The notes beneath the pieces are model-generated. The model ran no database searches, was not told the origin of the DNA, and saw only the letters and a program-made list of their open reading frames with translations. 64,000 nucleotides of DNA from Eledone cirrhosa (lineage: Eukaryota). Position 1 is the first letter of the stretch. Each line of letters opens with the position of its first letter. Position numbers and translations under genes: made by a program. Below are positions 1,795-49,387 of the stretch, in pieces. The DNA is taken from contig OZ024742.1 of assembly GCA_964016885.1 (NCBI GenBank), positions 23,126,001 to 23,190,000 of the forward strand, read 5' to 3'.

Positions 1795-3126
1795 AAGAGG
1801 GGGCGGGAGAGACTAAATCGGAAAATTCCCTATCAGTACCACTTAAATCTAATTTGATGAAATTATTTGCCCCATTCAGATGTTCTGAAGGACACCACTT
1901 ATTGGAAGTAAAGGTAATTCATTTGGCGTCAAAATACTTCGAGATTAGATAAAATGATGAAATGGTTTCTGGAGGTTTCGACATAACGTTTTGAATATAA
2001 ATGATATATAATTCAATATAAGTTTGGGAATGGGAAATATGATACAATTATAGAATTCTTAGAGAAACATCGTTTCGCTATTTTACCCCAGAGTCAAACA
2101 TATGGGACTCACCGAGTAAAAACCATTGAGATCACAGTAATGAACTAAATTCAGTTTTTACTCTAATGATATTACATCAGTGTATTAAAGTACAACTTGG
2201 CCGTATAATGCAATATGGAAGCCATTGAAATGTATAGAAAGACAAGCAAGGTTAAGCTACGGTCATCTTCCCTGATGTAAATTGATTTTGAGAGAAAATA
2301 ATTTTATACTTTACATCAATTGGATATTCTCTGTACACTTGCGATCACCTCTTTGGAGAAAGCAACAGAAGACATGGAATCTATCATTAATAGTTTTGTT
2401 TGGTTTGGTTTTTCTCATTATTTTCTATGAAAACTACAGTCTGTAGGATAGCATAAAATTTCTTATTAACTATAGCCTCGGGACTTTTCACTATTGACCA
2501 GTTTCAGGTATATTAAAGATGGTTCAAGCAGTAGAACGATAATGCAAAAGGGAGTTGGTATTGTGATGCGATACACTAAATTCAGTTCCTGTTGATATCT
2601 CTTATTTCTTACTCCATCCTTCCTGCTAATAACCTCCATAAATATTTGTAACATATCTATTATTTAATTGGATATACCAGTCTTGCATATATAACAGTTG
2701 ATAGACAAAATGCCACACTTCATTCGCTTAACGTGTGGGGTGGAGCTCGTTATATCGGACCGAGGAAACAATGCTTCCATTGGTCTTTCCAATTGCTTAT
2801 AATATCTAACGGTCGCAAATCCAGGTAGGAGGAGCAACGTAAAATAAAATGAATTGCTCAAGGAAATAACGACTAGGTATACGGAATAACTTACAGATTT
2901 AGAATGATATAACTATATATAAGTCTAGGGTAATTCTAAATGTGTAAGGTAGCTCGCCTCTAGGGGTTGCATTGACGAACATTAAACTCTGGTATATATT
3001 ACTATCATACCATGAGTTGATTTTATTTGATTTATTCCTAATCCTTTCTATTCTGTTCCAAATAAAATTTGCTCCTATAGACGGGGCAAGTCACATTTGC
3101 ATCATTTTCTACAATCTATGCTACAG

Positions 3127-3210
3127 CATGACCCTCCCAAAGTATAACAATATCTGTGTCAACAGACGTTTTCAGATAGGAAATCTTGCAAAACAAATTC
3201 AAAAACGATA
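3127..3210 (+). mobile_element. PLE 3' tail containing the first codons of the ORF (MTLPKYNNI...), ending in (TA)n
   Basis: ATGACCCTCCCAAAGTATAACAATATC also at 4658-4684(-), 30015-30038, 30522-30547(-), 34237-34262, 40358-40384. Confidence 0.7.
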
Positions 3211-3404
3211 TATATATATATATATATTCATTCACAAAACTGGCGCAGAACAAAATCCCTGTTGATAACGTGATAGTCCTTGCTCGATCATTATACAAAA
3301 AGCTTATAATTTTGAGCAGGCACTATTATTGATTTAGGTGTCATAGAAACCCTGTATTTGCATTTTACCATCAATTCCAATGGGCCCAGGTTTGTTCATA
3401 TATG

Positions 3405-3445
<41 letters not shown>

Positions 3446-4209
3446 TTTTATCATTTATTTTGTCTGACCTGTTTAGCTTGATTTGTTTTTTGGCTTAGGT
3501 CGTTAATGCCTTCTTGACTGCCTTTTCAGTATTGTATGGTCTTTATAACATATGTTTAGCTCTAGTTTTTTTTATTATGGAGCGCTTGCCAGTATGATTC
3601 TGATTTTGCATTTCGTTTCGCTTTTTCTACCCGCCGAAATGCGATTCTCGCTGAATTTATATTTGTATTAATCTCCCGCGTCTTACAATTAACCTGTTAA
3701 TAATTCTATTGACAGATTAATTGCATAAGTTTATTTTAAAAACTACTCGGTTGAGTGCTTATTCGATTTGTGCTATTTATGCAATTTTTGCATGATTTAG
3801 ACATACTGAATTCATTTGCCAAAATCTGGGGTTTTTCCTATGTTGAGTTACACATGTGCTTTTACAAATCACTACGTTATTCACAAAACATTTAATCATA
3901 TTTAATCATATTTACCTTATTAAATGTGGCATATTTAGGTGGTAGTTGTAATACAGATAATTCATCAGAGTCGACCGTAGTGTTGCCGTATATATTTGTG
4001 TTGTTGTTGAATTCATCTGTTCATGAGATGTCGGCCATATTTATACCATCAATTTTGTCGGGATATCTATTGATATTCTCTAAAGTATCTTGATTTAGTT
4101 TTATCTGTTTGATCCACTTTAGTTTCTTGTTAAAGTGCTTGTCACATTCTGAACAATGTACAGTTCTTCAGGACATATAAGGTTTATAAATATTATTTTT
4201 TCTCTTGGT

Positions 4210-4298
4210 TGACTTTGCCTTTCATCCTTACGGGGCGATAAAATAAAGTACCAGTAATGCACTGGGTAATTGCTGGCCTTGTGCCTAAAGTAGAAACA
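4210..4298 (+). mobile_element. 5'-truncated SINE with 18-bp target-site duplication
   Basis: Matches the 3' half of the SINE at 48946-49134; flanked by ATTATTTTTTCTCTTGGT at 4192-4209 and 4299-4316. Confidence 0.85.
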
Positions 4299-4812
4299 AT
4301 TATTTTTTCTCTTGGTGTGGTGACCTTAGTTATTTCTTGTATTAGGTTACGCTTGTGTTTTTCTTGACTTAATTCTCTATAAATCTTTTTTTTTATGTTT
4401 AGAATTAGTGTTCGTTTTAGCCTATCTGCTTGCTTTTTGGTGAGCTGTAATATTCTTACATCGGTGTTGATGGTATTGGTGTAAATTCGGGACGAGGCAC
4501 ATTCTTTTATGAAGTGTAGTTGTCGAGATGTTGTTGTTTTTCGTAGACAAAAGAACATGGTGGTTTTCAGTATCTTGTTAGCCTGGCTAAGGCTTACGAT
4601 ATTTCGTTTCTGAATTTGTTTAACAAGATTCTTCATCTGAAAACGTGTGTTGAAACCGATATTGTTATACTTTGGGAGGGTCATGTTGCCAATAAGAAAC
4701 ACACGCACCAGTTGCTTCCACTTCAATTTATTATAATAAATTTATAAATTTAGGAATTTATAAATTTCCGGTTGGTTGGTTGGTTCCACAACCAGATGGT
4801 TGTTTATATATT

Positions 4813-4855
4813 GTCAAAGTTCTTTCGTCACACATTCTGTAACCTCTTCAGTGAC
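4813..4855 (-). ncRNA. Canonical-core type I minimal hammerhead ribozyme
   Basis: Minus strand: GTCA-CTGAAGA-G-GTTACA gaatg TGTGAC-GAAA-G aa C-TT-TGAC; stems I, II and III all pair. Confidence 0.8.
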
Positions 4856-5307
4856 TGGGGATTCTTTTCTTTGTTTTTTGTGCCTCTCCTTTGTTCTGTC
4901 CTACGCCATCTTGTTTTTGTGTGTTGTGTGCTTAGTTTGCGCATGTGTTACATCCGGGTGTCTGTGTGTGTGTTTATATTCATTTATTTATTTGTTTATT
5001 TACATGTTACTGGTTGGTTGTTTGTTCTATGTGCGTGTGTGTTTTCATTTTGTCCTTAATAATAAGTTGTGATGTTGCTGTTACACTCATGTTTTCTATA
5101 AACATAAATGAATTACAACAAAAATTAAATAGAAAACATGAGTGGAACAGCAACATCACAACTTACATTTAAGGACAAAATGAGATCACACACGCACATA
5201 GAACAAACAACTAACCAGTAACATGTAAATAAACAAATAAGTAAACGAATATACCCCACACTCCGCACAGCGACGAGCTCCGCACCCGAACGGAAGTCGA
5301 GCGATTC

Positions 5308-7351
5308 GTGCGACGCACTAAGCTACAGCCACATTTCAGCCGAACGCCACCGGCTCCGGACGCCCCAGACCCGTTTCTCGCCCTGGGCCGACGACCATAT
5401 TCTTGGACGCCGGCCCCAGGGCAATTTAGCACCTTGGACGCCTTCGTCGATGCCAGCCGTAGCGCAGTAAATCGTTTCGACTTCCGCCACCGTTCCGAAC
5501 GGTACAATATCTCACGGGGCGAACTCCTCGCTCTCCGCTCCCTCCGTAGCCGAGATAACATCGTCATCAAACCGGCGGACAAGGGAGGCGCCGTAGTGGT
5601 GTGGCGCGCGGAGCTCTACACGGCCGAAGCCCTCAGGCAGCTCTGTAACCCCCTCTTTTACCGCCCTCTACCAACAACAAGTCTCCTCCACCATCAAAGA
5701 CCTTATCGCCTCCTCCCCCCTCCCCCCACCGCTTCCCACCTCATCGTTCGCACCCCCCGCACCCCCACCATCTACTTCCTCCCCAAACTCCACAAACCCG
5801 ACAACCCCGGCCGCCCCATCGTCTCCGCTTGCAATTGCCCCACCGAACTCATCGCCGCCTTTCTCGACTCCCTCCTCGCCCCCCTTGTCACCACCCTCCC
5901 CTCCCACATCTCCGACACCAACCACGCCCTGCGCCTTTTCGACTCCTTCACCTACCCACCCGGCCCACAGCCCTTCCTCTTCCCCCTAGACATCAAGTCC
6001 CTCTATACAGTCATCCCCCACGCCGACGGCCTTCGCGCCCTCACACACTACCTCGACCTTCGCCCCTCCCATATTCCCTCCACCCCCACCCTCCTTCGCC
6101 TCGCCGAGCTGGTCCTCACCCTGAATTGTTTCTCCTTCTCGGGTGAGTTTTACCAACAGGTCACGGGGGTAGCCATAGGTACAAGAATGGGCCCGAACTA
6201 TGCCAACCTTTTTGTTGGCCATGTTGATGCCCAAATCTTTGCCCAGTACACCGGCCCCACTCCCGAACTGTACGGTCGTTACATTGACGACTGTATCGGA
6301 GCCACGACCCTCACCCGAGAACAGCTCGACTCCTTTCTCTCCTTCTTCTGCTCCTTCCACCCCTCCCTCCACTTCACCACCTCTATCTCCACCACCCACG
6401 TCCACTTCTTAGACATCTCCGTCGCCTTCGACCCCTCCCACCACTCCCTGGTCACCTCCGCCTTCTTCAAACCCACCGACTCCCACTCTTACCTCGACTT
6501 CACCTCTACCCAACCCACCCACACTAAACACTCCATTCCCTACTCCCAACTTCTCAGGATCCGCCGACTCTCTAGCCGTGATGCTGACTTTGAGTCCCAG
6601 GCCCTTTCCCTAGTCAGCCATTTCATCCGCAGAGGTTACCCCCCTCTCCCGTCCACACCACTCTCACCCGCGCCCGTGCTGTTCCCCGCTCCACCACCCT
6701 CACCCCACGCCACGGCACACCCACCCACCGTCTCCCCTTCCCCATCACCTACCACCCCTCCACCTTACCCTTCCCCCGCACCATCCACCGCCTCTTCCGA
6801 CGCCTCCAGTCCGACCTCTCCACCTCCCACATCTTCCCAACCCCACCACTCCCCTCCTTCAAACGCGCACGCAATCTCCGCACACTCCTCGTCCACAGCT
6901 CTCTACCCCCCAACCCACGCTCTGTTTCCCCCCCGGTTCCTTTCCCCGTTCTAGGCCCCGCTGCAACACCTGTCCCCACATCACCAACACCACCACCTTC
7001 CAGGGTCTCAACGGCCACTCTCTCTCGGTCCGGCATGCCTTCCGCTGCACCTCCTCCAACCTAGTCTACGGACTTCGCTGCACTCCGTGCAGCGCGACTT
7101 ATGTCGGACAGACGGGACATCGCCTGGCGGACCGAGTCACGGAGCACCTCCGGGATATTCGTCTCGGGGGCAGTTCCCCCATCGCCCGCCACTTTGGTGG
7201 CCCTGGACATTCCGCACGCCATCTCACAGTCTGTGGCCTATTCCAGTGCCACGGAAACCCCGCCAATCGCCTTACGGTCGAACAACGAACTATCTTCATC
7301 TTACAGACCCACACTCCCCCTGGCCTGAACTCCCCACCCTTATTTCTTTAG
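5308..7351 (+). pseudogene. PLE reverse transcriptase + GIY-YIG endonuclease, frameshift near 6645
   Basis: IKPADKGGAVVV, YFLPKLHK..PGRPIVS, LDIKSLYT, GVAIGTRMGPNYANLF, RYIDD, FLDI, KPTDSHSYL; second frame RCNTCPHI...SSNLVYGLRCTPCSATYVGQT...EHLRDI...GLN, stop at 7349-7351. Confidence 0.92.
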
Positions 7352-8827
7352 CCTTCGACCGCCCCCTCCCCCCACACTTATCCCCCACTAACACCACTAA
7401 CACACCCCTCCTTTTCACCGCCCACCCCACAACTAACAATACTAACACCTCCACTGCACCCCTCATCTGACCACCCTTCCCCAACTAACATACTAACATC
7501 CCTTCCCTCCCCTCTTCTCCTCCTCCCCCTCCTTATCACACGCACACACCCACCGGCACATATATACACGCGCTCACACTAAACACACACCCTACTACCA
7601 CCACTAACCCTCACCCCCACACCTCCATCCCACCACCCCGCAACCAACCTCACTAAAACCCCCTAACCCCAAGCACACGAACACACGCACCCACTTACAC
7701 CACCCACCCCACACGCAACTAACATCACTAACACCCCCCAACCCCATGCACACGTACCCACACACCCTCGTACACCACCAACTCTACACACCCTACCACC
7801 ACTAACCTCCACTCACACCTGCATTCAACCCCTCCCCACCTCCCGTATACTAACACCCACTAACACCTCATCAAACTACACACACACCAGTACACCACAC
7901 TCCCTCCATAGAACCACACACACCCTTCGCTCCCCGCTCCACCCACACCCTCGCTCAACACTCACTCATCCCACTAACACCCCTACTAATACACACACAC
8001 ACACCCTCCTCACACCAACTTTCACACCTACCCATCCTCGCCCCTTTACCATTCCACCGACTGCTGCTATGCCCTCTGACCACCTCCCAGCACAAACAGA
8101 CCACAGCACTCCTACTGCTGACCACTTCCTGTTGCGCGCGCACCCCACATCTCTCCTCTTCCGACCATCGCTTCATGGAATACCCACACGCAGAAATTGA
8201 CCAGCCACCAATCCACTATACATCTTCGGACTTTACCAACTTTTCAACCATCCTCTTACGTAATCCCCTATATAACTCACCCACACACACACCCCCAAAA
8301 ACATTTTTTTCTCCACACGCCACCTACACCCACAACACGCTTAAACCCCACACACGTGCTTTTCACCACATATCTACACCCTCAGCCTCCTGATTCCTCT
8401 CCCCCCACCCCTCTATCCACACACGCACAGACACTCCGACCCACAAACTCCCCCCCCACACCTCTTCCTAAACATGCAACCCCGTTCTTACCCCAAACCT
8501 TACTTTCACATACACACACACACACACACACACGCACACCTACACACACACACCACCTTCAGCCCTCCCCGCTCGGACACCCCGTCTCCCTCTCCCCACT
8601 CCACCCCTACACACCCCACATCCTCCCACCACCCGTTTACCCCTTTTTAATATCAGTTTATTTTGATCATGCCTTTATTTTTTAATTTATCTCATTCCTT
8701 GTATTTTGATCATGCTTTATTTTTATTTTTATCTTTATTTTTTATTTTTTCATTCGCACCGTTTCCTTTCGCTATATGTCTCTCCACCACTCCCCTACAC
8801 ACCCTTTAAACTCTGTTCCCACACACT

Positions 8828-8864
8828 TCCCACCTGAGGAAGGGCTTATGCCCGAAACGTCGTC
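8828..8864 (+). ncRNA. Minimal hammerhead ribozyme of the PLE terminal repeat
   Basis: CTGAGGA-A-GGGC ttat GCCC-GAAACGTC; stem I weak. Confidence 0.7.
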
Positions 8865-9252
8865 CCCCACCAACACCCCACTCTCCAGAGCGTGAAATTA
8901 ATAAACATTTGTTGTACTGCCTCTCTGTTTTGTCCCTGTTCAAATTTTTCCATTATATATATATATATATATATATATAGTACATAGCACGTTACGTAGC
9001 ATTACCTGAATAGAGGTATAGCTGAATAGAGATGGTCATTGTTATAGATATCTCAGGTGTAAGTGTGTGTGAATGTATTTGGGAGGGTGTGTGTGTGTAT
9101 TTGTGTATGCAGGTGTGTGTCTGTGTGTTTCTATATGTACCTTCTATATGTGTTCAGGTGCAATGGTATGTGTGCTTGTGAGTGTGTGAGGGGGATGGAG
9201 ATGGGGAGCTGTTAGTTCTGATTCCATATACTATAGCATCATGCACAAAGTA

Positions 9253-12105: not shown

Positions 12106-12173
12106 TGTGTTCATATGCATCAAGTGGAAACATGATGGGCAGCTTTAGAATAGCGAGAGGCTTATGAGATGGT

Positions 12174-15100
12174 GTGCCAGTGGGTGTGTTAAGGGGAAAC
12201 ATGTGTGTGTTAGTGTTGTGTGTGTCAGTGGGTGTGTTAAGGGGAAACATGTGTGTGTTAGTGTTGTGTGTGTCAGTGGGTGTGTTAATGGGAAACATGT
12301 GTGTGTTAGTGTTGTGTGTGTCAGTGGGTGTATTAAGGGGAAACATGTGTGTGTTAGTGATGTGTGTGTCAGTGGGTGTGTTAAGGGGAAACATGTGTGT
12401 GTTAGTGTTGTGTGTATCAGTGGGTGTGTTAAGGGGAAACATATGGTGTTAGTGCTGTGTGTGTCAGTGGGTGTGTTAAGGGGAAACATGTGTGTGTTAG
12501 TGTTGTGTGTGCCAGTGAGTGTGTTAAGGGGAAATTTGTGTGTGTTAGTGTTGTGTGTGTCAGTGGGTGCATTAAGGGGAAACATGTGTGTGTTAGTGTT
12601 GTGTGTGTCAGTGGGTGTGTTAAGGGGAAACATATGTGAGTTAGTGTTGTGTGTGTCAGTGGGTGTTTTAAGGGGAAACATATGTGTGTTAGTGTTGTGT
12701 GTGTCAGTGGGTGTGTTAAGGGGAAACATATGTGTGTTAGTGTTGTGTGTGTCAGTGGGTGTGTTAAGGGGAAATATGTGTGTGTTAGTGTTGTGTGTGT
12801 CAGTGGGTGTGTTAAGGGGAAACATATGTGTGTTAGTGTTGTGTGTGTCAGTGGGTGTGTTAAGGGGAAACATATGTGTGTTAGTGTTGTGTGTGTCAGT
12901 GGGTGTGTTAAGGGGAATTATATGTGTGTTAGTGTTGTGTGTGTCAGTGGGTGTGTTAAGGGGAATTATATGTGTGTTAGTGTTGTGTGTGTCAGTGGGT
13001 GTGTTAAGGGGAATCATATGTGTGTTAGTGTTGTGTGTGTCAGTGGGTGTGTTAAGGCGAATCATATGTGTGTTAGTGTTGTGTGTGTCAGTGGGTGTGT
13101 TAAGGGGAAATATGTGTGTTAGTGTTGTGTGTGTCAGTGGGTGTGTTAAGGGGAAACATATGTGTGTCAGTGTTGTGTGTGTCAGTGGGTGTGTTAAGGG
13201 GAAATATGTGTGTGTTAGTGTTGTGTGTCTCAGTGGGTGTGTTAAGGGGAAATATGTGTGTGTTAGTGTTGTGTGTGTCAGTGGGTGTGTTAAGGGGAAA
13301 CATATGTGTGTTAGTATTGTGTGTGTCAGTTGGTGTGTTAAGGGGAAACATATGTGTGTTAGTGTTGTGTGTGTCAGTGGGTGTGTTAAGGGGAAACATA
13401 TGTGTGTTAGTGTTGTGTGTGTCAGTGGGTGTGTTAAGGGGAAATATGTGTGTTAGTGTTGTGTGTGTCAGTGGGTGTGTTAAGGAGAAACATATGTGTG
13501 TTAGTGTTGTGTGTGGCAGTGGGTGTGTTAAGGGGAAATATGTGTGTGTTAGTGTTGTGTGTGTCAGTGGGTGTGTTAAGGGGAAATATGTGTGTGTTAG
13601 TGTTGTGTGTCTCAGTGGGTGTGTTAAGGGGAAATATGTGTGTGTTCGTGTTGTGTGTGTCAGTGGGTGTGTTAAAGGGAAACATGTGTGTGTTGGGATT
13701 TTGTGTGTTAGTGGCTGCGTTTAGGGGAAACATATGTGTGTTAGTGTTGTGTGTGTCAGTGGGTGTGTTAAGGGGAAACTTGTGTGTGTTAGTGTTGCGT
13801 GTGTCAGTGGGTGTGTTATGGGGAAATAATATGTGTGTTTGTGTTGTGTGTGTCAGTGGGTGTGTTAAGGGGAAACATATGTGTGTTAGTGTTGTGTGTG
13901 TCAGTGGGAGTGTTAAGGGGAAATATGTGTGTGTTAGTGATGTGTGTGTCAGTGGGTGTGTTAAGGGGAAATATGTGTGTGTTAGTGTTGTGTGTGTCAG
14001 TGGGTGTGTTAAGGGGAAACATATGTGTGTTAGTGTTGTGAGTGTCAGTGGGTGTGTTAAGGGGAAACATGTGCGTGTTAGTGTTGTGTGTGTCAGTGGA
14101 TGTGTTAAGGCGAAACATATGTGTGTTAGTGTTGTGTGTGTCAGTGGGTGTGTTACGGGGAAATATGTGTGTGTTAGTGTTGTGTGTGTCAGTGGGTGTG
14201 TTAAGGGGAAATATGTGTGTGTTAGTGTATTGTGCGTCAGTGGGTGGGTTAAGGGGAAACATATGTGTGTTAGTGTTGTGCGTGTCAGTGGGTGTGTTAA
14301 GGGGAAACATATGTGTGTTAGTGTTGTGTGTGTCAGTGGGTGTGTTAAGGGGAAATATGTGTGTGTTAGTGTTGTGTGTGTCAGTGGGTGTCTTAAGGGG
14401 AATCATATGTGTGTTAGTGTTGTGTGTGTCAGTGGGTGTGTTAAGGGGAAATATGTGTGTGTTAGTGTTGTGTGTGTCAGTGGGTGTGTTAAGGGGAAAC
14501 ATATGTGTGTTAGTGTTGTGTGTGTCAGTGGGTGTGTTAAGGGGAAATATGTGTGTGTTAGTGTTGTGTTTATCAGTGGGTGTGTTAAGGGGAAACATAT
14601 GTGTGTTAGTGTTGTATGTGTTAGTGGGTGTGTTAAGGGGAAACATATGTGTGTTAGTGTTGTGTGTGTCAGTGGGTGTGTTTAGGGGAAACATGTGTGT
14701 GTGTTAGTGTTGTGTGTTAGTGGGTGTGTTAAGGGGAAACATGTGTGTGTTAGTGTTGTGTGTGTCAGTGGGTGTGTTAAGGGGAAATTTGTGTGTGTTA
14801 GTGTTGTGTGTGTCAGTGGGTGTGTTAAGGGGAAACATGTGTGTGTTAGTGTTGTGTGTGTCAGTGGGTGTATTAAGGCAAAACATGTGTGTGTTAGTGT
14901 TGTGTGTGTCAGTGGGTGTGTTAAGGGGAAACATATGTGAGTTAGTGTTGTGTGTGTCAGTGGGTGTTTTAAGGGGAAACATATGTGTGTTAGTGTTGTG
15001 TGTGTCAGTGGGTGTGTTAAGGGGAAATATATGTGTGTTAGTGTTGTGTGTGTCAGTGGGTGTGTTAAGGGGAATTATATGTGTGTTAGTGTTGTGTGTG

Positions 15101-18100
15101 TCAGTGGGTGTGTTAAGGGGAATCATATGTGTGTTAGTGTTGTGTGTGTCAGTGGGTGTGTTAAGGGGAAATATGTGTGTGTTAGTGTTGTGTGTGTCAG
15201 TGGGTGTGTTAAGGGGAATCATATGTGTGTTAGTGTTGTGTGTGTCAGTGGGTGTGTTAAGGGGAATCATATGTGTGTTAGTGTTGTGTGTGTCAGTGGG
15301 TATGTTAAGGGGAAATATGTGTGTTAGTGTTGTGTGTGTCAGTGGGTGTGTTAAGGGGAAACATATGTGTGTTAGTGTTGTGTGTGTCAGTGGGTGTGTT
15401 AAGGGGAAATATGTGTGTGTTAGTGTTGTGTGTGTCAGTGGGTGTGTTAAGGGGAAATATGTGTGTGTTAGTGTTGTGTGTGTCAGTGGGTGTGTTAAGG
15501 GGAAACATATGTGTGTTAGTATTGTGTGTGTCAGTGGGTGTGTTAAGCGGAAATATGTGTGTGTTAGTGTTGTGTGTGTCAGTGGGTGTGTTAAGGGGAA
15601 ACATGTGTGTGTTGGGATTTTGTGTGTTAGTGGCTGTGTTTAGGGGAAACATATGTGTGTTAGTGTTGTGTGTGTCAGTGGGTGTGTTAAGGGGAAACTT
15701 GTGTGTGTTAATGTTGTGTGTGTCAGTGGGTGTGTTATGGGGAAACATATGTGTGTTTGTGTTGTGTGTGTCAGTGGGTGTGTTAAGGGGAAACATATGT
15801 GTGTTAGAGTTGTGTGTGTCAGTGGGAGTGTTAAGGGGAAATATGTGTGTGTTAGTGTTGTGTGTGTCAGTGGGTGTGTTAAGGGGAAATATGTGTGTGT
15901 TAGTGTTGTGTGTGTCAGTGGGTGTGTTAAGGGGAAACATATGTGTGTTAGTGTTGTGTGTGTCAGTGGGTGTGTTAAGGGGAAACATGTGCGTGTTAGT
16001 GTTGTGTGTGTCAGTGGATGTGTTAAGGCGAAACATATGTGTGTTAGTGTTGTGTGTGTCAGTGGGTGTGTTACGGGGAAATATGTGTGTGTTAGTGTTG
16101 TGTGTGTCAGTGGGTGTGTTAAGGGGAAATATGTGTGTGTTAGTGTATTGTGCGTCAGAGGGTGGGTTAAGGGGAAACATATGTGTGTTAGTGTTGTGCG
16201 TGTCAGTGGGTGTGTTAAGGGGAAACATATGTGTGTTAGTGTTGTGTGTGTCAGTGGGTGTGTTAAGGGGAAATATGTGTGTGTTAGTGTTGTGTGTGTC
16301 AGTGGGTGTGTTAAGGGGAGTCATATGTGTGTTAGTGTTGTGTGTGTCAGTGGGTGCGTTCAGGAGAAACATATGTGTGTTAGTGTTGTGTGTGTCAGTG
16401 GGTGTGTTAAGGGGAAATATGTGTGTGTTAGTGTTGTGTGTGTCAGTGGGTGTGTTAAGGGGAAACATATGTGTGTTAGTGTTGTGTGTGTCAGTGGGTG
16501 TATTAAGGGGAAATATGTGTGTGTTAGTGTTGTGTTTATCAGTGGGTGTGTTAAGGGGAAACATATGTGTGTTAGTGTTGTATGTGTCAGTGGGTGTGTT
16601 AAGGGGAATTATATGTGTGTTAGTGTTGTGTGTGTCAGTGGGTGTGTTAAGGGGAATCATATGTGTGTTAGTGTTGTGTGTGTCAGTGGGTGTGTTAAGG
16701 GGAAATATGTGTGTGTTAGTGTTGTGTGTGTCAGTGGGTGTGTTAAGGGAAAACATGTGTGTGTTAGTGTTGTGTGTGTCAGTGGGTGTGTTAATGGGAA
16801 ACATGTGTGTGTTAGTGTTGTGTGTGTCAGTGGGTGTATTAAGGGGAAATATGTGTGTGTTAGTGATGTGTGTGTCAGTGGGTGTGTTAAGGGGAAACAT
16901 GTGTGTGTTAGTGTTGTGTGTATCAGTGGGTGTGTTAAGGGGAAACATATGGTGTTAGTGCTGTGTGTGTCAGTGGGTGTGTTAAGGGGAAACATGTGTG
17001 TGTTAGTGTTGTGTGTGTCAGTGGGTGTGTTAAGGGGAAACATGTGTGTGTTAGTGTTGTGTGTGTCAGTGGGTGTGTTAAGAGGAAACATGTGTGTGTT
17101 AGTGTTGTGTGTGTCAGTGGGTGTGTTAAGGGTAAACATATGTGTGTTAGTGTTGTGTGTGTCAGTGGGTGTGTTAAGGGGAAACTTGTGTGTGTTAGTG
17201 TTGTGTGTGTGTGTCAGTGGGTGTGTTAAGGGTAAACATGTATGTGTTAGTGTTGTGTGTGTCAGTGGGTGTGTTAAGGGGAAACATGTGTGTGTTAGTG
17301 TTGTGTGTGTCAGTGGGTGTGTTAAGGGGAATCATGTGTGTGATAGTGTTTGTGTGTGTCAGTGGGTGTGTTAAGGAGAAACATGTGTGTGTTAGTGTTG
17401 TGTGTGTCAGTGGGTGTGTTAAGGGGAAACCTGTGTGTGTTAGTGTTGTGTGTGTCAGTGGGTGTGTTAAGGGGAAACATATGTGTGTTAGTGTTGTGTG
17501 TGTCAGTGGGTGTGTTAAGGGGAAACATGTGTGTGTGTTAGTGTTGTGTGTGTCAGTGGGTGTGTTAAGGGGAAACATGTGTGTGTTAGTGTTGTGTGTG
17601 TCAGTGGGTGTGTTAAGGGGAAACATGTGTGTGTTAGTGTTGTGTGTGTCAGTGGGTGTGTTAAGGGGAAATATGTGTGTGTTAGTGTTGTGTGTGTCAG
17701 TGGGTGTGTTAAGGGTAAACATATGTGTGTTAGTGTTGTGTGTGTCAGTGGTAGTGTTAAGGGTAAACATGTGTGTGTTAGTGTTGTGTGTGTCAGTGGG
17801 TGTGTTAAGGGGAAACATGTGTGTGTTAGTGTTGTGTGTGTCAGTGGGTGTGTTAAGGGGAAATTTGTGTGTGTTAGTGTTGTGTGTGTCAGTGGGTGTG
17901 TTAAGGGGAAACATGTGTGTGTTAGTGTTGTATGTGTCAGTGGGTGTGTTAAGGGGAAATATGTGTGTGTTAGTGTTGTGTGTGCCAGTGAGTGTGTTAA
18001 GGGGAAATTTGTGTGTGTTAGTGTTGTGTGTTTCAGTGGGTGCATTAAGGGGAAACATGTGTGTGTTAGTGTTGTGTGTGTCAGTGGGTGTGTTAAGGGG

Positions 18101-21100
18101 AAACATATGTGAGTTAGTGTTGTGTGTATCAGTGGGTGTTTTAAGGGGAAACATATGTGTGTTAGTGTTGTGTGTGTCAGTGGGTGTGTTAAGGGGAAAC
18201 ATATGTGTGTTAGTGTTGTGTGTGTCAGTGGGTGTGTTAAGGGGAAATATGTGTGTGTTAGTGTTGTGTGTGTCAGTGGGTGTGTTAAGGGGAAACATAT
18301 GTGTGTTAGTGTTGTGTGTGTCAGTGGGTGTGTTAAGGGGAAACATATGTGTGTTAGTGTTGTGTGTGTCAGTGGGTGTGTTAAGGGGAATTATATGTGT
18401 GTTAGTGTTGTGTGTGTCAGTGGGTGTGTTAAGGGGAATTATATGTGTGTTAGTGTTGTGTGTGTCAGTGGGTGTGTTAAGGGGAATCATATGTGTGTTA
18501 GTGTTGTGTGTGTCAGTGGGTGTGTTAAGGCGAATCATATGTGTGTTAGTGTTGTGTGTGTCAGTGGGTGTGTTAAGGGGAAATATGTGTGTTAGTGTTG
18601 TGTGTGTCAGTGGGTGTGTTAAGGGGAAACATATGTGTGTCAGTGTTGTGTGTGTCAGTGGGTGTGTTAAGGGGAAATATGTGTGTGTTAGTGTTGTGTG
18701 TCTCAGTGGGTGTGTTAACGGGAAATATGTGTGTGTTAGTGTTGTGTGTGTCAGTGGGTGTGTTAAGGGGAAACATATGTGTGTTAGTATTGTGTGTGTC
18801 AGTTGGTGTGTTAAGGGGAAACATATGTGTGTTAGTGTTGTGTGTGTCAGTGGGTGTGTTAAGGGGAAACATATGTGTGTTAGTGTTGTGTGTGTCAGTG
18901 GGTGTGTTAAGGGGAAATATGTGTGTTAGTGGTGTGTGTGTCAGTGGGTGTGTTAAGGGGAAACATATGTGTGTTAGTGTTGTGTGTGTCAGTGGGTGTG
19001 TTAAGGGGAAATATGTGTGTGTTAGTGTTGTGTGTGTCAGTGGGTGTGTTAAGGGGAAATATGTGTGTGTTAGTGTTGTGTGTCTCAGTGGGTGTGTTAA
19101 GGGGAAATATGTGTGTGTTCGTGTTGTGTGTGTCAGTGGGTGTGTTAAAGGGAAACATGTGTGTGTTGGGATTTTGTGTGTTAGTGGCTGCGTTTAGGGG
19201 AAACATATGTGTGTTAGTGTTGTGTGTGTCAGTGGGTGTGTTAAGGGGAAACTTGTGTGTGTTAGTGTTGCGTGTGTCAGTGGGTGTGTTATGGGGAAAT
19301 AATATGTGTGTTTGTGTTGTGTGTGTCAGTGGGTGTGTTAAGGGGAAACATATGTGTGTTAGTGTTGTGTGTGTCAGTGGGAGTGTTAAGGGGAAATATG
19401 TGTGTGTTAGTGTTGTGTGTGTCAGTGGGTGTGTTAAGGGGAAATATGTGTGTGTTAGTGTTGTGTGTGTCAGTGGGTGTGTTAAGGGGAAACATATGTG
19501 TGTTAGTGTTGTGAGTGTCAGTGGGTGTGTTAAGGGGAAACATGTGCGTGTTAGTGTTGTGTGTGTCAGTGGATGTGTTAAGGGGAAACATATGTGTGTT
19601 AGTGTTGTGTGTGTCAGTGGGTGTGTTACGGGGAAATATGTGTGTGTTAGAGTTGTGTGTGTCAGTGGGTGTGTTAAGGGGAAATATGTGTGTGTTAGTG
19701 TATTGTGCGTCAGTGGGTGGGTTAAGGGGAAACATATGTGTGTTAGTGTTGTGCGTGTCAGTGGGTGTGTTAAGGGGAAACATATGTGTGTTAGTGTTGT
19801 GTGTGTCAGTGGGTGTGTTAAGGGGAAATATGTGTGTGTTAGTGTTGTGTGTGTCAGTGGGTGTCTTAAGGGGAATCATATGTGTGTTAGTGTTGTGTGT
19901 GTCAGTGGGTGCGTTAAGGAGAAACATATGTGTGTTAGTGTTGTGTGTGTCAGTGGGTGTGTTAAGGGGAAATATGTGTGTGTTAGTGTTGTGTGTGTCA
20001 GTGGGTGTGTTAAGGGGAAACATATGTGTGTTAGTGTTGTGTGTGTCAGTGGGTGTGTTAAGGGGAAATATGTGTGTGTTAGTGTTGTGTTTATCAGTGG
20101 GTGTGTTAAGGGGAAACATATGTGTGTTAGTGTTGTATGTGTTAGTGGGTGTGTTAAGGGGAAACATATGTGTGTTAGTGTTGTGTGTGTCAGTGGGTGT
20201 GTTTAGGGGAAACATGTGTGTGTGTTAGTGTTGTGTGTTAGTGGGTGTGTTAAGGGGAAACATGTGTGTGTTAGTGTTGTGTGTGTCAGTGGGTGTGTTA
20301 AGGGGAAACATGTGTGTGTTAGTGTTGTGTGTGTCAGTGGGTGTATTAAGGCAAAACATGTGTGTGTTAGTGTTGTGTGTGTCAGTGGGTGTGTTAAGGG
20401 GAAACATATGTGAGTTAGTGTTGTGTGTGTCAGTGGGCGTTTTAAGGGGAAACATATGTGTGTTAGTGTTGTGTGTGTCAGTGGGTGTGTTAAGGGGAAA
20501 TATATGTGTGTTAGTGTTGTGTGTGTCAGTGAGTGTGTTAAGGGGAATTATATGTGTGTTAGTGTTGTGTGTGTCAGTGGGTGTGTTAAGGGGAATCATA
20601 TGTGTGTTAGTGTTGTGTGTGTCAGTGGGTGTGTTAAGGGGAAATATGTGTGTGTTAGTGTTGTGTGTGTCAGTGGGTGTGTTAAGGGGAATCATATGTG
20701 TGTTAGTGTTGTGTGTGTCAGTGGGTGTGTTAAGGGGAATCATATGTGTGTTAGTGTTGTGTGTGTCAGTGGGTATGTTAAGGGGAAATATGTGTGTTAG
20801 TGTTGTGTGTGTCAGTGGGTGTGTTAAGGGGAAATATGTGTGTGTTAGTGTTGTGTGTGTCAGTGGGTGTGTTAAGGGGAAATATGTGTGTGTTAGTGTT
20901 GTGTGTGTCAGTGGGTGTATTAAGGGGAAATATGTGTGTGTTAGTGTTGTGTGTGTCAGTGGGTGTGTTAAGGGGAAACATATGTGTGTTAGTATTGTGT
21001 GTGTCAGTGGGTGTGTTAAGCGGAAATATGTGTGTGTTAGTGTTGTGTGTGTCAGTGGGTGTGTTAAGGGGAAACATGTGTGTGTTGGGATTTTGTGTGT

Positions 21101-24100
21101 TAGTGGCTGTGTTTAGGGGAAACATATGTGTGTTAGTGTTGTGTGTGTCAGTGGGTGTGTTAAGGGGAAACTTGTGTGTGTTAATGTTGTGTGTGTCAGT
21201 GGGTGTGTTATGGGGAAACATATGTGTGTTTGTGTTGTGTGTGTCAGTGGGTGTGTTAAGGGGAAACATATGTGTGTTAGTGTTGTGTGTGTCAGTGGGA
21301 GTGTTAAGGGGAAATATGTGTGTGTTAGTGTTGTGTGTGTCAGTGGGTGTGTTAAGGGGAAATATGTGTGTGTTAGTGTTGTGTGTGTCAGTGGGTGTGT
21401 TAAGGGGAAACATATGTGTGTTATTGTTGTGTGTGTCAGTGGGTGTGTTAAGGGGAAACATGTGCGTGTTAGTGTTGTGTGTGTCAGTGGATGTGTTAAG
21501 GCGAAACATATGTGTGTTAGTGTTGTGTGTGTCAGTGGGTGTGTTACGGGGAAATATGTGTGTGTTAGTGTTGTGTGTGTCAGTGGGTGTGTTAAGGGGA
21601 AATATGTGTGTGTTAGTGTATTGTGCGTCAGAGGGTGGGTTAAGGGGAAACATATGTGTGTTAGTGTTGTGCGTGTCAGTGGGTGTGTTAAGGGGAAACA
21701 TATGTGTGTTAGTGTTGTGTGTGTCAGTGGGTGTGTTAAGGGGAAATATGTGTGTGTTAGTGTTGTGTGTGTCAGTGGGTGTGTTAAGGGGAGTCATATG
21801 TGTGTTAGTGTTGTGTGTGTCAGTGGGTGCGTTAAGGAGAAACATATGTGTGTTAGTGTTGTGTGTGTCAGTGGGTGTGTTAAGGGGAAATATGTGTGTG
21901 TTAGTGTTGTGTGTGTCAGTGGGTGTGTTAAGGGGAAACATATGTGTGTTAGTGTTGTGTGTGTCAGTGGGTGTATTAAGGGGAAATATGTGTGTGTTAG
22001 TGTTGTGTTTATCAGTGGGTGTGTTAAGGGGAATCATATGTGTGTTAGTGTTGTATGTGTTAGTGGGTGTGTTAAGGGGAAACATATGTGTGTTAGTGTT
22101 GTGTGTGTCAGTGGGTGTGTTTAGGGGAAACATGTGTGTGTGTGTTAGTGTTGTGTGTTAGTGGGTGTGTTAAGGGGAAACATATGTGTGTTAGTGTTGT
22201 GTGTGTCAGTGGGTGTGTTAAGGGGAAACATGTGTGTGTTGGGATTGTGTGTGTTAGTGGGTGTGTTAAGGGGAAACCTGTGTGTGTTAGTGTTGTGTGT
22301 GTCAGTGGGTGTGTTAAGTGGAAATATGTGTGTGTTACTGTTGTGTGTGTCAGTGTGTGTGTTAAGGGGAAACATATGTGTGTGTTAGTGTTGTGTGTGT
22401 CAGTGGGTGTTTTAAGGGGAAACATATGTGTGTTAGTGTTGTGTGTGTCAGTGGGTGTGTTAAGGGGAAACATAGGTGTGTTAGTGTTGTGTGTGTCAGT
22501 GGGTGTGTTAAGGGGAATTATATGTGTGTTAGTGTTGTGTGTGTCAGTGGGTGTGTTAAGGGGAATCATATGTGTGTTAGTGTTGTGTGTGTCAGTGGGT
22601 GTGTTAAGGGGAAATATGTGTGTGTTAGTGTTGTGTGTGTCAGTGGGTGTGTTAAGGGGAATCATATGTGTGTTAGTGTTGTGTGTGTCAGTGGATGTGT
22701 TAAGGGGAATCATATGTGTGTTAGTGTTGTGTGTGTCAGTGGGTATGTTAAGGGGAAATATGTGTTAGTGTTGTGTGTGTCAGTGTGTGTTTTAAGGGGA
22801 AACATATGTGTGTTAGTGTTGTGTGTGTCAGTGGGTGTGTTAAGGGGAAATATGTGTGTGTTAGTGTTGTGTGTGTCAGTGGGTGTGTTAAGGGGAAATA
22901 TGTGTGTGTTAGTGTTGTGTGTGTCAGTGGGTGTGTTAAGGGGAAACATATGTGTGTTAGTATTGTGTGTGTCAGTGGGTGTGTTAAGCGGAAATATGTG
23001 TGTGTTAGTGTTGTGTGTGTCAGTGGGTGTGTTAAGGGGAAACATGTGTGTGTTGGGATTTTGTGTGTTAGTGGCTGTGTTTAGGGGAAACATATGTGTG
23101 TTAGTGTTGTGTGTGTCAGTGGGTGTGTTAAGGGGAAACTTGTGTGTGTTAGTGTTGTGTGTGTCAGTGGGTGTGTTATGGGGAAACATATGTGTGTTTG
23201 TGTTGTGTGTGTCAGTGGGTGTGTTACGGGGAAATATGTGTGTGTTAGTGTTGTGTGTGTCAGTGGGTGTGTTAAGGGGAAATATGTGTGTGTTAGTGTA
23301 TTGTGCGTCAGTGGGTGGGTTAAGGGGAAACATATGTGTGTTAGTGTTGTGCGTGTCAGTGGGTGTGTTAAGGGGAAACATATGTGTGTTAGTGTTGTGT
23401 GTGTCAGTGGGTGTGTTAAGGGGAAATATGTGTGTGTTAGTGTTGTGTGTGTCAGTGGGTGTGTTAAGGGGAATCATATGTGTGTTAGTGTTGTGTGTGT
23501 CAGTGGGTGCGTTAAGGAGAAACATATGTGTGTTAGTGTTGTGTGTGTCAGTGGGTGTGTTAAGGGGAAATATGTGTGTGTTAGTGTTGTGTGTGTCAGT
23601 GGGTGTGTTAAGGGGAAACATATGTGTGTTAGTGTTGTGTGTGTCAGTGGGTGTATTAAGGGGAAACATATGTGTGTTAGTGTTGTGTGTGTCAGTGGGT
23701 GTGTTTAGGGGAAACATGTGTGTGTGTTAGTGTTGTGTGTTAGTGGGTGTGTTAAGGGGAAACATATGTGTGTTAGTGTTGTGTGTGTCAGTGGGTGTGT
23801 TAAGGGGAAACATGTGTGTGTTGGGATTGTGTGTGTTAGTGGGTGTGTTAAGGGGAAACATGTGTGTGTTAGTGTTGTGTGTGTCAGTGGGTGTGTTAAG
23901 TGGAAATATGTGTGTGTTAGTGTTGTGTGTGTCAGTGTGTGTGTTAAGGGGAAACATATGTGTGTGGTAGTGTTGTGTGTGTCAGTGGGTGTGTTAAGGG
24001 GAAACATGTGTGTGTTAGTGTTATGTGTGTCAGTGGGTGTGTTAAGGGGAAATATGTGTGTGTTAGTGTTGTGTGTGTCAGTGGGTGTGTTAAGGGAAAT

Positions 24101-29722: not shown

Positions 29723-30165
29723 TGTGCATGTATACATACATACATAGCTTGAGAAGCTGGGCTTCACAGAGCCAGCAAGAGCACGGCTAGTTAGGAAGTT
29801 GCAGGTACATTCCTTTAATGGTATTGTGAATATACGTAATACATTTACGAGAATCCACCATGTAATAATTGCATAGTCACATGTAAAGATTCAAAACACT
29901 ATGTATGATTATATACATATGACTGGAAATATACACATACTCACATGTATCATACGTAGAAGAAGAAGAAGAAGAAGTGAAACCTATCACGTGCGTCTGT
30001 TTTTATTGGCGGCACGACCCTCCCAAATATAACAATATATATAATATATATATATAATATATATATACTGTATATATATATATAAAATATATGGTTAAAT
30101 CTTAATTAAATATTGATTAAATCTTAACCATTTAACATCTCAGGGTATGTCATGTATCATTATAT

Positions 30166-30270: not shown

Positions 30271-30470
30271 AGGTTTATCCCGGATTCAATCGGGGGTAAC
30301 CATAGTAAATTAAGTACTCGATACAAATCAGAGTATAAATATTTAATATAGAAAAGGATTCTACAGGTCTAGACCTGTTTCATTCGGGAGAAATCATCAG
30401 GAAGCCCTGATGATTTCTCCAGAATGAAACAGGTCTAGTCCTCTAGAAGCCTTTTATACATTAAATATAT
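30271..30470. mobile_element. Small head-to-head PLE terminal pair with two back-to-back HHRs
   Basis: CCTGATGATTTCTCC(A/C)GAATGAAACAGGTCTAG on both strands around a 4-nt spacer at 30402-30405; left arm has a ~65-nt extra tail. Confidence 0.75.
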
Positions 30471-30478
30471 ATATATAT

Positions 30479-33400
30479 AGTTTTGCGAGGTTTTTTTTTA
30501 TGAAATCGTGTGTCGAAACAAATATTGTTATACTTGGGGAGGGTCATATTTGTGTAATAATATTGCCAGAATTAATAACAGAACACACTCACTGTTTGGT
30601 TGGTTTTCACTTCTGTGTCTTTTATATCGGTTAATTTAATTTATTTGGTCCTCAATGTTGCCATTGCCTGACCAACGGTCAAAAATACAGATACAATATA
30701 GGCACAAACACATATATATAGTATATCAAAGTTCTTTCGTTGCACATCTGCAACATCGTCAGTGGTGCTATTATATTTCCTCCCGTTGCATTGTATGCTT
30801 ACGCCATCTTTAATTAGTCTATTTATTTATTTATTTGTTTATTTTGTTGTCTTCTCTGCGCATGCGTTTGCGCGTGTGTATAGTGTTTTGTTTGATGTGT
30901 GTTCTTGTTTGGGTGACTGTGTATTGGTTAATGTATTCTATCTTAGTTTACTAGTGTGTGTTTATATGTGTTTGTTGTTGCTGTGCTTGTGTATGTATTT
31001 ATTTATTTATTCTTCTCTTAGGTCAGTGTTGTTTGTTTGGGTGTTGTTGTTATACCATTCATTTTTTCTGTTTAGCCTTGGCCTTCTAAGTTCTATTTTC
31101 GCTGGCCTCTCTGATTTGCCTATCTGCTGGGTTATTTCTATGTTTAGATATTATTCTAACTTCTATGTTGTCTATGTTACCGTTGTGTTGTTTTCTGGCA
31201 TGTTCGTATAGTACCGAACCGTTTTTTGTCTTTTTAGTTTCCCCCAGTGTTGGTCTATCCTTTCACCTATGCTACGAGCTGTCTCGCCTATGAATGTTGT
31301 TGTTATGTTTCTGCAAGTACCCTCTGTACATTTAATGCTATAGACTACGTTTCTAGTTTTACAGTTTATCCTGGGGTTTACTCAATATATGATAGATTTC
31401 CTATTAGTACAGTGGGTTTTCTTAAACGGGTAGGTTTTGCTGATCAAGGATTTGATGGTGGTTCCTGTCTTTTATACCACATTAATCTTTAAGTGGGTGT
31501 TTCTCAGGGCCTTTCTACACTGGTTAGCTAATTTCCCTCCAGGGGTAGCATCCACACACATGACACTCTGGTATCTCTGGTTGTCGTACCATGAGGTGGC
31601 TTTCCCTATCCTATGTCTAGTCCTATCTAAGCTATTCCATGATTTGCTCCTGTATAATGGGCAAATTCCTTTCATGTCCAGTTCTATGAGAGTATTACAC
31701 TTCTCCGTGGCTCATTCGTATACTCTGATTCTGTCTCTTTGGTTGTAGTCAGAGAACTGCATGCGGTTGATGGAGTGTTGGATGTGTCTTTCCATTTCTG
31801 TTGGGTCGCACATGCGGGACACGTTCTTCATCACTCGTAACAAGTCTGCGATCAGAATATTAAACTTAGCACTACTGGACATTGCTTAGTTTTTTAGTAT
31901 CAGGTATTTGGAGGCCATGGATTTAGCATAGTGTGCGTGGTAAATTTTGGCTCTCTCGTCTATAGTGTTAAGCCAGAGTTCTGTGTCTAATACAGGTAGT
32001 ATATTGTTAGGGTGTTTGGAAGGGTAGTCGCTAGTTAGAGTTATACTCTGGTGTATGGAATTAGCTATCTACTGGATGCTTTCCATTGTACTACGTTCTA
32101 AATCAAACTTGTTAGTGCTCTCTTGTGGAGATGTCCTTATTACTATATTGATGTCGTCTACGTAACGAGAGTACATGATGAGGTCTATGGAGCTCTCATC
32201 AAGGAGATCTTTGAGTCTCCTTTACCACCATACCATAAAAAGGTTGGCAACGTCACCAGCTATGCTGACGCCAATGGCTGCTCCCCCATTTTGGGTGTAG
32301 ATCTCGTTGAACTTGAATATGTGGCCCTTTGATACTAGCCCCTATTGCATGTGCGACCATTTTTCTTACCCGATCATTGTTTTGGAGGTCCGTATAGCTT
32401 TGGTCCACCCAATCGACCTTCCCATAGGAGTCTTTTTTGCCATTGAGGTTATGGTGGGGGGTCTACCTCTTATGGGTCTACTGAGGCAGAAACGTCTAAG
32501 GTCATGGCTGTCTAGGTAGTCAGTGTCGTAGGTAAGTCTAAGTAGGAGGCCCAGTTCGTCTGTGTCGACGTCGCAGACTCCACCTCACCCTCACTGATCA
32601 TCTCCACACATTTTTTCCACAGCAAAATCAATGTTAATGGATGGGTACAGTGATACCACATCCATACTGCCTATTATGCAGTTGGATAGGTTCCTGTTTT
32701 TGTTGCTCTCACTGATTCTGCTGAGGAGGTCCTCTGTACTGTCACATACATCTGGGGACATCTTGATTATGGGGCGTATAAGCATTGAGAGGAAGTAGGA
32801 GATCCTGTAGTTGCTAGCTATATTTGCTCCACATACAGGTCTTGTTGGTGGTCCTGTTGTCGGGTCGTCGACTGTCTTGTGGTCTTTGCGGAGCCCATAC
32901 AAGGGTGGTAAGCCATTGTTGGACGCCTGGAAGGTGTTGGCAGTGCGTCTGCTTGGCTTTAGGATGTCAGTCCACATCAACATGTGGGTGTTGAGGATTT
33001 TCTCTCTCCTATCATGTATTTGCTCTGCAATTTCGCTCGTGTTGGTGATGTGGGGTTGCATAGCCTTGATGTAGCTCGACATGCTGTCTATTGACATCCT
33101 ACCAGACTTATCCGTGGGTAGACATACTACCTCACTATCCCTTGTGCGCTGCTTGAGGCTAACCAAGCCTTCTACAGGTTTCCTCCCAAGTTGTTGGATA
33201 TCTGGTCTGCTCTGTCTTTTAGTATACCGGTCTACTATTTGTCTAATCTTATTTCTAGCTATGGTGAACTGTGCCTCTATCTCGTCATCTATTTGTTGTG
33301 GTATGCACACTCTTTTATTAAAGGGTAACCCCGTAGGATAGATATTACCCATCTTATATGTTTTGTCAGCTGGGTTGAAGAATATTTTCTCTAAGGGGTT

Positions 33401-34259
33401 GTCATTATATCTATCGTCATAGTTGTGTGTGTTGCTATTATTGTTATTATGGTGGTTGCTGTTTTTCCTATCATTAGAATTATTATTATTGTTATGATTG
33501 CTAGATGTATTGTTGCTGTGATTGTTAGATGTATTGTTGTTGTTTTCTCCACCGTTATTGTTGTTGTTACTGTTATTTCTACCATTGTGGTTGTTACTTT
33601 TATTATGTTTCTTGTTTTTGTTGTGTCTATCATTAATGTTGCTACATGTATTATTTTTATTATTACCACTGTGGTTGTTGTTGTTGTTATTCGTATTGTT
33701 ACCGTTATTACTACTGTGGTCGCTGCTGCTGTGTCTGTAGTTAATGTTTCTATTATTATTATTATTGTGGTTGTTGTTGTTGTTCTGTCTATCGTTAATA
33801 TTATTACTATTATTACTATTTCTCACTCTCCTGCTATTGTTATTGTTATGACTATTACTATTATAGCTGTTATATCTATACTCAGAGTTATTGTTTATAT
33901 TACTACTACCGTTATTATTGTTGTTGTTTACTTTTGCATTCCAACGTATTTTTGTGAACCAATTTTCCAGCTCCGTTTTTCACTCAATAGGGAGGAAACA
34001 TAATAGCACTACTGACGATGTTGCAGATGTGCAACGAAAGAACTTTGATAGACTATATATATATATGTGTTTGTGTCTATATTGTATCTGTATTTTTTAC
34101 CGTTGGTCAGTCAATGGCAACATTGAGGACGGAATAAATTAAATTTACCGATATAAAAGACACAGAAGCGAAAACAACCAAACAGTAAGTGTGTTATGTT
34201 ATTAATTCTGGCAATATTCCATATTATTACACAAATATGATACTTCCCCAAGTATAACA

Positions 34260-34262
<3 letters not shown>
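30479..34262 (-). mobile_element. Long PLE (minus, 30479-33998) with an inverted terminal-repeat copy at its 5' end (33999-34262, plus)
   Basis: 34001-34262 is the reverse complement of ~30522-30772; both carry the HHR CTGACGA-T-GTTGCA gatg TGCAAC-GAAA-GAACTT. Confidence 0.88.
31100..33826 (-). pseudogene. PLE polyprotein: Asn-rich N-region, RT, GIY-YIG endonuclease (frameshifts and stops)
   Basis: LPTDKSGR, YGLRKDHK..GPPTRPVCGA, STEDLL, GSMDVVSLYPSI, RYVDD (~32155), LPVLDT; EN RNVVYSIKC...FIGETARSIGER (~31260-31355). Confidence 0.88.
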
Positions 34263-34323
<61 letters not shown>

Positions 34324-40079: not shown

Positions 40080-40437
40080 CAATACACACAAACAGAAACA
40101 AGTTGGCGTAGGACAGAACAAAGTAGAGGCACAAAAACAAAGAAAAGAATCCCCAGTCACTGAAGAGGTCACAGAATGTGTGAAGAAAGAACTTTGACAA
40201 TATATAAACAACCATCTGGTTGTGGAAACAACCAACCAACCGGAAATTTATAAATTCCTAAATTTATAAATTTATTATAATAAATTATTATAAATTATTA
40301 TATTAAATTATTATAAATTATTATAATAAATTGGTGCGTGTGTTTCTTATTGGCAACATGACCCTCCCAAAGTATAACAATATCGGTTTCAATACACGTT
40401 TTCAGATAAAGAATCTTACTAAACAAATTCAGAATCG

Positions 40438-40441
<4 letters not shown>
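40080..40441 (+). mobile_element. PLE terminal repeat with HHR (40156-40198) and MTLPKYNNI tail
   Basis: Reverse complement of 4601-4930; GTCA-CTGAAGA...GAAAGAACTT-TGAC. Confidence 0.85.
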
Positions 40442-40482
<41 letters not shown>

Positions 40483-45307: not shown

Positions 45308-48281
<2,974 letters not shown>

Positions 48282-49134: not shown

Positions 49135-49172
49135 ATATACATACACAGACACGGAAACACACGCACACACAC

Positions 49173-49224: not shown

Positions 49225-49387
49225 CATATATATAGGGAGATGGCCCCAGTTAAAAACCGTACTCAAAACGTTAGTAGAGTATTAGTATGATTTTTTTAAT
49301 TAATGAAATGACTCCTACATGACTAGAATAGGTCTAGTTATGTAGAATCCATTTCTATAATATATATATATATATAAATATATATAT

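Follow-up and report, generated by a model that had tools for sequence, protein, structure and literature searches.

The MTLPK elements in the stretch of Eledone cirrhosa DNA analysed here (64,000 nt of contig OZ024742.1, hereafter the window) belong to a Penelope-like retrotransposon (PLE) that targets (TA)n, and represent its 3' ends. They consist of the pLTR and the first 26, ~68 or ~85 nt of the element's own open reading frame (ORF), and they abut (TA)n. The explanation that we favour for these ends, with a probability of roughly 0.55 on the basis of the junction analysis below, is that a protein would set the interval in which reverse transcription initiates, while a nicked (TA)n primer would pair with an internal AUAU or UAUA word of the template. 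That the tail is the ORF start and is primed internally is already published (PMC3846280, PMC11167929). In the accessible text of the papers searched, the only part of our explanation that goes beyond published work is the location of the ends on words matching the (TA)n target.

Anatomy of the MTLPK copies

A motif search of the window found the 26-nt motif without mismatch at 3128 (+), 4684 (-), 30547 (-) and 40358 (+); it occurred in 0 of 100 shuffles. Two degenerate copies were recognized by reading and alignment, one at 30014 (+) with an ACG start and a 1-nt deletion, the other at 34237 (+) with a small insertion. The six copies described in the first-pass annotation are all present at their places, with correct coordinates and words. 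The annotation had also described them as lying behind different upstream sequences, of which there are fewer than six: the upstream sequence is the pLTR of subfamily A at 4684, 40358 and 30014, the pLTR of subfamily B at 30547 and 34237, and an inversion junction that lacks a pLTR at 3128. Five of the copies run into (TA)n arrays, starting at 30035, 34260, 3208, 40440 and 30479, in agreement with the earlier positions (the last being 30479 in our analysis). Relative to the ATG, the arrays start at +22 to +24 (30035 and 34260; the reference word is at +23), at +69 (30479), and at +81 and +83 (3208 and 40440, respectively).

The sixth copy, at 4684, reads through and was used as the reference. 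Its frame, which had been said to continue for more than 120 codons, is indeed open for 163 codons, but the PLE part covers only ~124 of them and the remainder is a SINE-like insert. This insert is flanked by an 18-bp target-site duplication (4192-4209 and 4299-4316), and its tentative SINE label comes from a B-box-like word. Within the first 150 nt of the reference copy, alternating A/T words of at least 4 bases are found only at +16, +23 and +83. The idea that the 4684 copy carries a 1,240-nt tail ending at the (TA)n array at 3443 was dropped, since 3920-3230 alone matched neither the family profile nor the N-terminus of family C significantly against shuffles. By eye, 3445-3900 (-), between the subfamily A ORF homology and the array at 3443, looks like the N-terminal part of a DKG-type PLE; tests of this likeness were not significant. 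The coordinates of the features are given in Table 1.

Table 1. Features of the MTLPK family, in positions of the window
Feature	Position	Strand	Support
ORF start MTLPK, subfamily A, read-through reference	4307..4684	-	family HMM 1-124, E 9e-24; phmmer to P0006 residues 6-110, E 3.1e-5
SINE-like insert, breaks the ORF near codon 125	4192..4316	+	90% match to 49039-49136
Rest of the broken subfamily A ORF	3607..4203	-	HMM 124-315, E 5e-16; convincing to ~3900
Subfamily A 3' UTR / pLTR, putative hammerhead-like core 4851, 167 nt before ATG	4685..5099	-	core-word pattern
Inverted head-to-head arm of the 4684 insertion, a fold-back on its 5' side	5129..5253	+	125-nt arms, 93% complementary
ORF fragment (thumb-to-endonuclease linker), head-to-head with the 3128 tail	2926..3127	-	HMM 833-891, E 3.9e-8
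Tail-only arm, +1 to ~+80, then (TA)n 3208-3227	3128..3227	+	alignment
Subfamily A pLTR, core 40160, ATG 40358, long end +83, (TA)n 40440-40479	40084..40479	+	86% to 4599-4929
Short subfamily A fragment, degenerate start 30014, short end, (TA)n 30035-30067	29991..30067	+	alignment
Subfamily B ORF, broken, 5'-truncated: Asn-rich insert, RT (YVDD), C-terminal GIY-YIG	31013..33979	-	HMM 230-1058, E 7.6e-261; 61 homologs
B 3' UTR, pLTR (core 30762), tail from ATG 30547 to +68, (TA)n 30479-30465	30465..31012	-	
B inverted 5' arm: pLTR, ATG 34237, short end, (TA)n 34260-34319	33990..34319	+	90% to 30522-30784

The subfamily B insertion is arranged head-to-head, in the order (TA)n, tail to +68, pLTR, truncated ORF, inverted pLTR, short end, (TA)n. 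Its two pLTRs are in inverted arrangement (33990-34263 against 30522-30784), and both arms carry a tail end, of unequal length. The part of the ORF at 33400-33960 (-) is a long in-frame Asn-rich insert, as in Adineta Penelope elements. The inverted arms at 5129-5253 and 2913-3127 have ends that are distant from the ORF start, yet near TA words: one ends at ATATA 4979 of the reference arm and is followed by family C, and the other ends at a short TA run at ~2920. These ends may be due to looser second-strand priming.

The core-word pattern placed a putative minimal hammerhead-like core in the pLTRs, 167-225 nt 5' of the ATG. Stem II of this core is present in four copies, with covariation (two-sided changes) at 2 of its 6 pairs. 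Fold z-scores of the core region were not significant. In the Rfam search, hammerhead was absent among the best 150 of 165 matches, and miRNA-type and other sub-threshold matches were found there. A small palindromic element at 30330-30470, with two hammerhead-like cores head-to-head, ends in (TA)n.

Several other elements were noted in the window. A GC-rich canonical (DKG) PLE at 5245-8954 (+) has an RT, a GIY-YIG and a long 3' UTR; its hammerhead-like core lies at 8834, and on the 3' side it ends at (TA)n. Head-to-head insertion chains of several families, split by (TA)n arrays and with short and long end classes, are present at 49380-56605 and 54340-55300. The tails of two related families in these chains translate to similar peptides, and these tails may also be ORF starts. 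Broken PLE-like ORFs were seen at 43788-44479 (-), 45402-46459 (+), 52801-53484 (-) and 56800-57950 (+), and the RT motif at 44135-44479 looks Hydra-like by eye when set against Fig. S1 of Craig et al. A satellite occupies the 12 kb at 12160-24540; its unit is ~48 bp long and its higher-order repeats are ~5.5 kb. The Asn/Thr-rich ORF at 61691-63600 (+) contains a zinc-knuckle-like word, CYHC...GH, and may be a LINE ORF1.

The ORF start and the encoded protein

Judged by homology, the PLE ORF encoding RT and GIY-YIG truly begins with MTLPK. Contiguity of MTLPK with RT was seen in homologs only, and in none of the window's copies. MTLPK matches the full-length protein P0006 (1,047 aa) from residue 6 and the family profile from position 1. 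When the 132 N-terminal residues were compared exhaustively with 1.84 billion proteins, 12 matches were obtained, including P0006 (residues 6-110, E 3.1e-5), and N-termini among the 12 read MVLPKIN, MKLPKYN and MVLPKLN. Word-index searches that used the N-terminal part as the query retrieved no homologs among longer or shorter proteins. Because the family profile, made from 24 homologs, was partly built from matches retrieved with the 4684 query, the phmmer match to P0006 and tblastn are to be taken as the independent tests. That MTLPK is homologous to the N-terminal residues of complete RT-endonuclease ORFs in relatives bears out the earlier view of the tail as the start of the element's own ORF.

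With the RT of 33979-31013 as the query, 61 long protein homologs were found. The family has a single ORF with a telomerase-related RT, in which YVDD is present both in element B of the window and in the homologs. The GIY-YIG in the same ORF was recognized as a motif from the homologs and the alignment consensus, compared by eye with Fig. S2 of Craig et al. Pfam recognized neither the RT nor the endonuclease of the family, and the ESM Atlas gave no usable match for it. In the structural comparison of the P0006 model (pLDDT 92.6), the top 14 rows were all telomerase RTs, as is to be expected of a PLE, the best of them with a Z of 16.3 and an rmsd of 4.7 over 316 aligned.

Junctions with (TA)n and formation of the ends

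The overlap at each junction was defined as the bases that fit both the read-through copy and (TA)n, and was compared with the overlap at junctions placed at random in the surrounding sequence. In the MTLPK family, an overlap of at least 4 nt was found at three of the five junctions (P 0.004 if they are independent) and at two of the three sites (P 0.016). Counted strictly, the overlap was 4 nt at 30035, 34260 and 40440, 1 nt at 3208 (or 4 nt, but only by allowing for a 2-nt deletion) and 0 at 30479. The earlier statement that the tails are cut at TAT words thus holds strictly for three of the five ends and fails for the other two.

Other repeat families of the window were added by hand selection. 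Of the 18 junctions analysed in this way, 16 were hand-picked from 42 edges, and 30479 (missed by BLAST) and 35940 versus 35700 were added. The edges left out were TA runs inside elements, simple-repeat flanks, partners all sharing the same end, and the ambiguous 56549 and 35862; five site groups without PLE assignment are included. An overlap of at least 4 nt was present at 8 of the 18 junctions, with 0.86 expected, and 10 fell below 4 nt. Counted per site across the window, the overlap was seen at 7 of 13 sites (0.83 expected), and all junctions of the site passed at 4 of 13 (P 0.001). Restriction to families supported by an ORF or a ribozyme core left 6 of 12 junctions by hand count. Other families likewise show a pattern of a short and a long end, and the overlap is 4-5 nt at 54799, 51386, 30465 and 37742.

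Alternating A/T words occur 11 times in the 791-nt stretch of subfamily A from the pLTR to +370 and 11 times in the 531-nt UTR and tail of subfamily B, some of them longer. Despite these words, the five array-flanked ends are confined to +23 to +83, less than 90 nt into the ORF. TA words alone are insufficient to set the ends, because each subfamily has 11 of them and the ends nevertheless stay near the ORF start. The same distribution bears on another interpretation, in which initiation is independent of homology, as in PAc, and the tail is trimmed later, when microhomology between an ATAT word inside it and the (TA)n next to it leads to a deletion. The junction signature would be identical, microhomology deletions have been reported in Penelope copies (PMC3846280), and (TA) runs of at least 10 nt are abundant (133 in 48.5 kb). 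We nevertheless regard this course as unlikely, since the longer TA words upstream in the pLTR are unused, with self-BLAST finding no A or B pLTR copy that ends there against an array; the pair of short and long ends recurs across families; and an optional tail is general in PLEs (PMC3846280, PMC8557442). In-place expansion of an ATAT word was likewise considered and rejected, as the ORF continuation is absent elsewhere in the masked window.

What is known of PAc suggests how the ends could be kept near the ORF start. The PAc protein binds the ORF start when this is part of an RNA that runs across the pLTR-ORF junction. It nicks both strands of AT-rich DNA, and cDNA synthesis begins at two positions within the ORF start, so that a short end and an optional tail result (PMC11167929). 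Priming by L1 depends mainly on the last 4 bases of the primer (PMC3649969). In the pairing mechanism that we propose, the protein would bring the RT to the ORF start and set the interval of initiation. A nicked primer ending in ...TATA-3' would then usually pair over 4-5 nt with the nearest AUAU or UAUA word in that interval, and the ends would therefore snap to such words. Priming from both target strands would produce a head-to-head insertion with a tail end on each side. In the twin priming of L1, an inverted 5' arm arises through the use of a second primer.

The enrichment of overlap at the junctions, the ends near the ORF start, the same end pattern across families and the unequal ends of the B arms speak for the pairing mechanism. 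Against it stand the overlap below 4 nt at 10 of the 18 junctions, with 0 at 30479, the selection of these junctions by hand, with five site groups that are not assigned to PLEs, and the fact that the one PLE studied in vitro, PAc, primes without homology. Cleavage could also put the ends on TA words if an endonuclease favouring such words cut the DNA intermediate of the element at ATAT, with no pairing between primer and template. PAc does cleave AT-rich motifs on both strands; its genomic ends, on the other hand, coincide with the RT start sites measured in vitro (PMC11167929), and we consider this explanation improbable.

Further points against pairing are that the copies are ~10% diverged and that ends common to several copies may be inherited from one parent, which would make the number of independent events smaller. 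Taken further, a parent tail followed by (TA)n could be transcribed into (UA)n that primes the daughters, internal priming having occurred once per lineage. Identical long ends in three or four copies of another family (53628, 55292, 51470) agree with such inheritance, and the next unit would be unnecessary once a tail exists. The origin of the ends would be left unexplained, the arms of B end at different points, and PAc requires ORF sequence to +172, past its start sites (PMC11167929). We hold inheritance as the general cause to be quite improbable.

Simple insertion into an array predicts (TA)n on the 5' side as well, whereas the copies at 40084-40443 and 29991-30038 have none there, which also counts against the pairing mechanism. 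Part of the (TA)n might instead be made by the element, if the telomerase-related RT copied AUAU repeatedly before extending. These two direct copies, with (TA)n solely on the 3' side, and the exclusively telomerase RTs in the top 14 structural rows are in line with this. Repeat synthesis is very unlikely in our judgement: arrays that tails of different families share tail-to-tail, and that lie beside both arms, point to a target present before insertion, several PLE clades are known to prefer (TA)n (PMC8557442), and one end has just TATA before (CA)n (53737). Several arrays bear the ends of repeat families on either side, and these families differ; such arrays fit (TA)n as a shared target.

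As to the template, the first-pass annotation had proposed that it extends into the coding start of the next unit and is primed internally. This fits the anatomy, and it has already been published. The DNA sequence is compatible with a read-through, a multimeric and a circular template, the last of which was proposed by Cervera and de la Pena (2014, PMC4209133). No mention of microhomology between PLE tails and their targets was found in the accessible text of the literature searched, and that of PMC13282606, PMC2678813 and bioRxiv 10.64898/2026.07.22.740005 held nothing on tails.

The origin of PLE tails and the preference of PLEs for microsatellites have been listed among the open questions (PMC8557442). 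Should TA-targeting families prime by pairing over 4-5 nt within the coding start, one rule would join target bias, tail length and head-to-head structure. The mechanistic tie to telomerase would then be tighter, and the rule could be tested with a PAc-type assay. A wider proposal, which we put forward tentatively and consider rather doubtful, is that telomerase-like pairing operates in several PLE lineages and that the MTLPK family is an undescribed clade with a C-terminal endonuclease and, between RT motifs A and B', a fingers insertion of ~70 residues, similar in size to that of telomerase, possibly lengthening the (TA)n on which it primes.

Comparison with known systems

Among the systems compared, PAc, a Poseidon element of Anolis carolinensis (Frangieh et al. 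2024), resembles the MTLPK family in having its ends within the ORF start; in PAc, the tail is bounded by two start sites and both strands are extended (PMC11167929), as would be the case here. Both also have long N-terminal helices, at 29-163 in the P0006 model and at 27-173 in PAc (PMC11167929). The start of reverse transcription in PAc, at 111-118 nt of the ORF, falls in an AC-rich stem-loop that has no homology to the target (PMC11167929), whereas the ends here are at +26, +68 and +86 and mostly at ATAT. The tail-end region of the MTLPK family showed no significant fold (z -0.4 and -0.7). The PAc hammerhead overlaps the ATG (PMC11167929), while the putative core of the MTLPK family lies 167-225 nt upstream.

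Pen2a of Adineta vaga (Arkhipova et al. 2013) shares with the present elements the inverted pLTRs, the palindromes at inversion junctions and the Asn-rich ORF inserts (PMC3846280). Its pLTR spans the first 12 codons, or 22 with the optional tail. The tail of Pen2a is 31 bp long and its target duplications are discernible (PMC3846280), whereas the tails here are ~45-60 nt and the targets are microsatellites. Craig et al. (2021) described optional tails of 30-40 bp and a (TA)n preference, and ascribed the tail to endonuclease resolution (PMC8557442). L1 uses primer-template pairing of ~4 nt, as would be the case here, but it primes on terminal poly(A) and not on words of the coding start (Monot et al. 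2013, PMC3649969).

The MTLPK family is a PLE, and we assign it to no named clade. Between motifs A and B', the spacing is 127-133 residues in 46 of the 47 homologs that could be parsed (14 of the 61 were not parsed) and 126 in element B of the window. It is 59 in family C, the canonical neighbour. Canonical PLEs with a C-terminal endonuclease have no fingers insertion, and that of Naiad and Chlamys is 20-40 residues long (PMC8557442). The insertion between motifs A and B' was not found in the literature searched, and three motifs of the family are absent from the accessible supplement text of Craig et al. These observations make the family a candidate for an undescribed one. Naiad and Chlamys carry the endonuclease at the N-terminus and lack a canonical hammerhead, whereas the endonuclease of the MTLPK family is C-terminal. 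Hydra has DKT, a CxCX5C linker and no fingers insertion; the MTLPK family differs in its DKS, its CxxC linker and its long A-to-B' spacing. The DKS also departs from the DKG of Nematis and Neptune, in which motifs A and B' have no insertion between them. Hydra and Naiad share with the MTLPK family the (TA)n preference, and Nematis shares with it the C-terminal GIY-YIG and a short Cys linker (PMC8557442). In many homologs, this linker reads CX2-5CxxC before the C-terminal endonuclease and is short as in Nematis.
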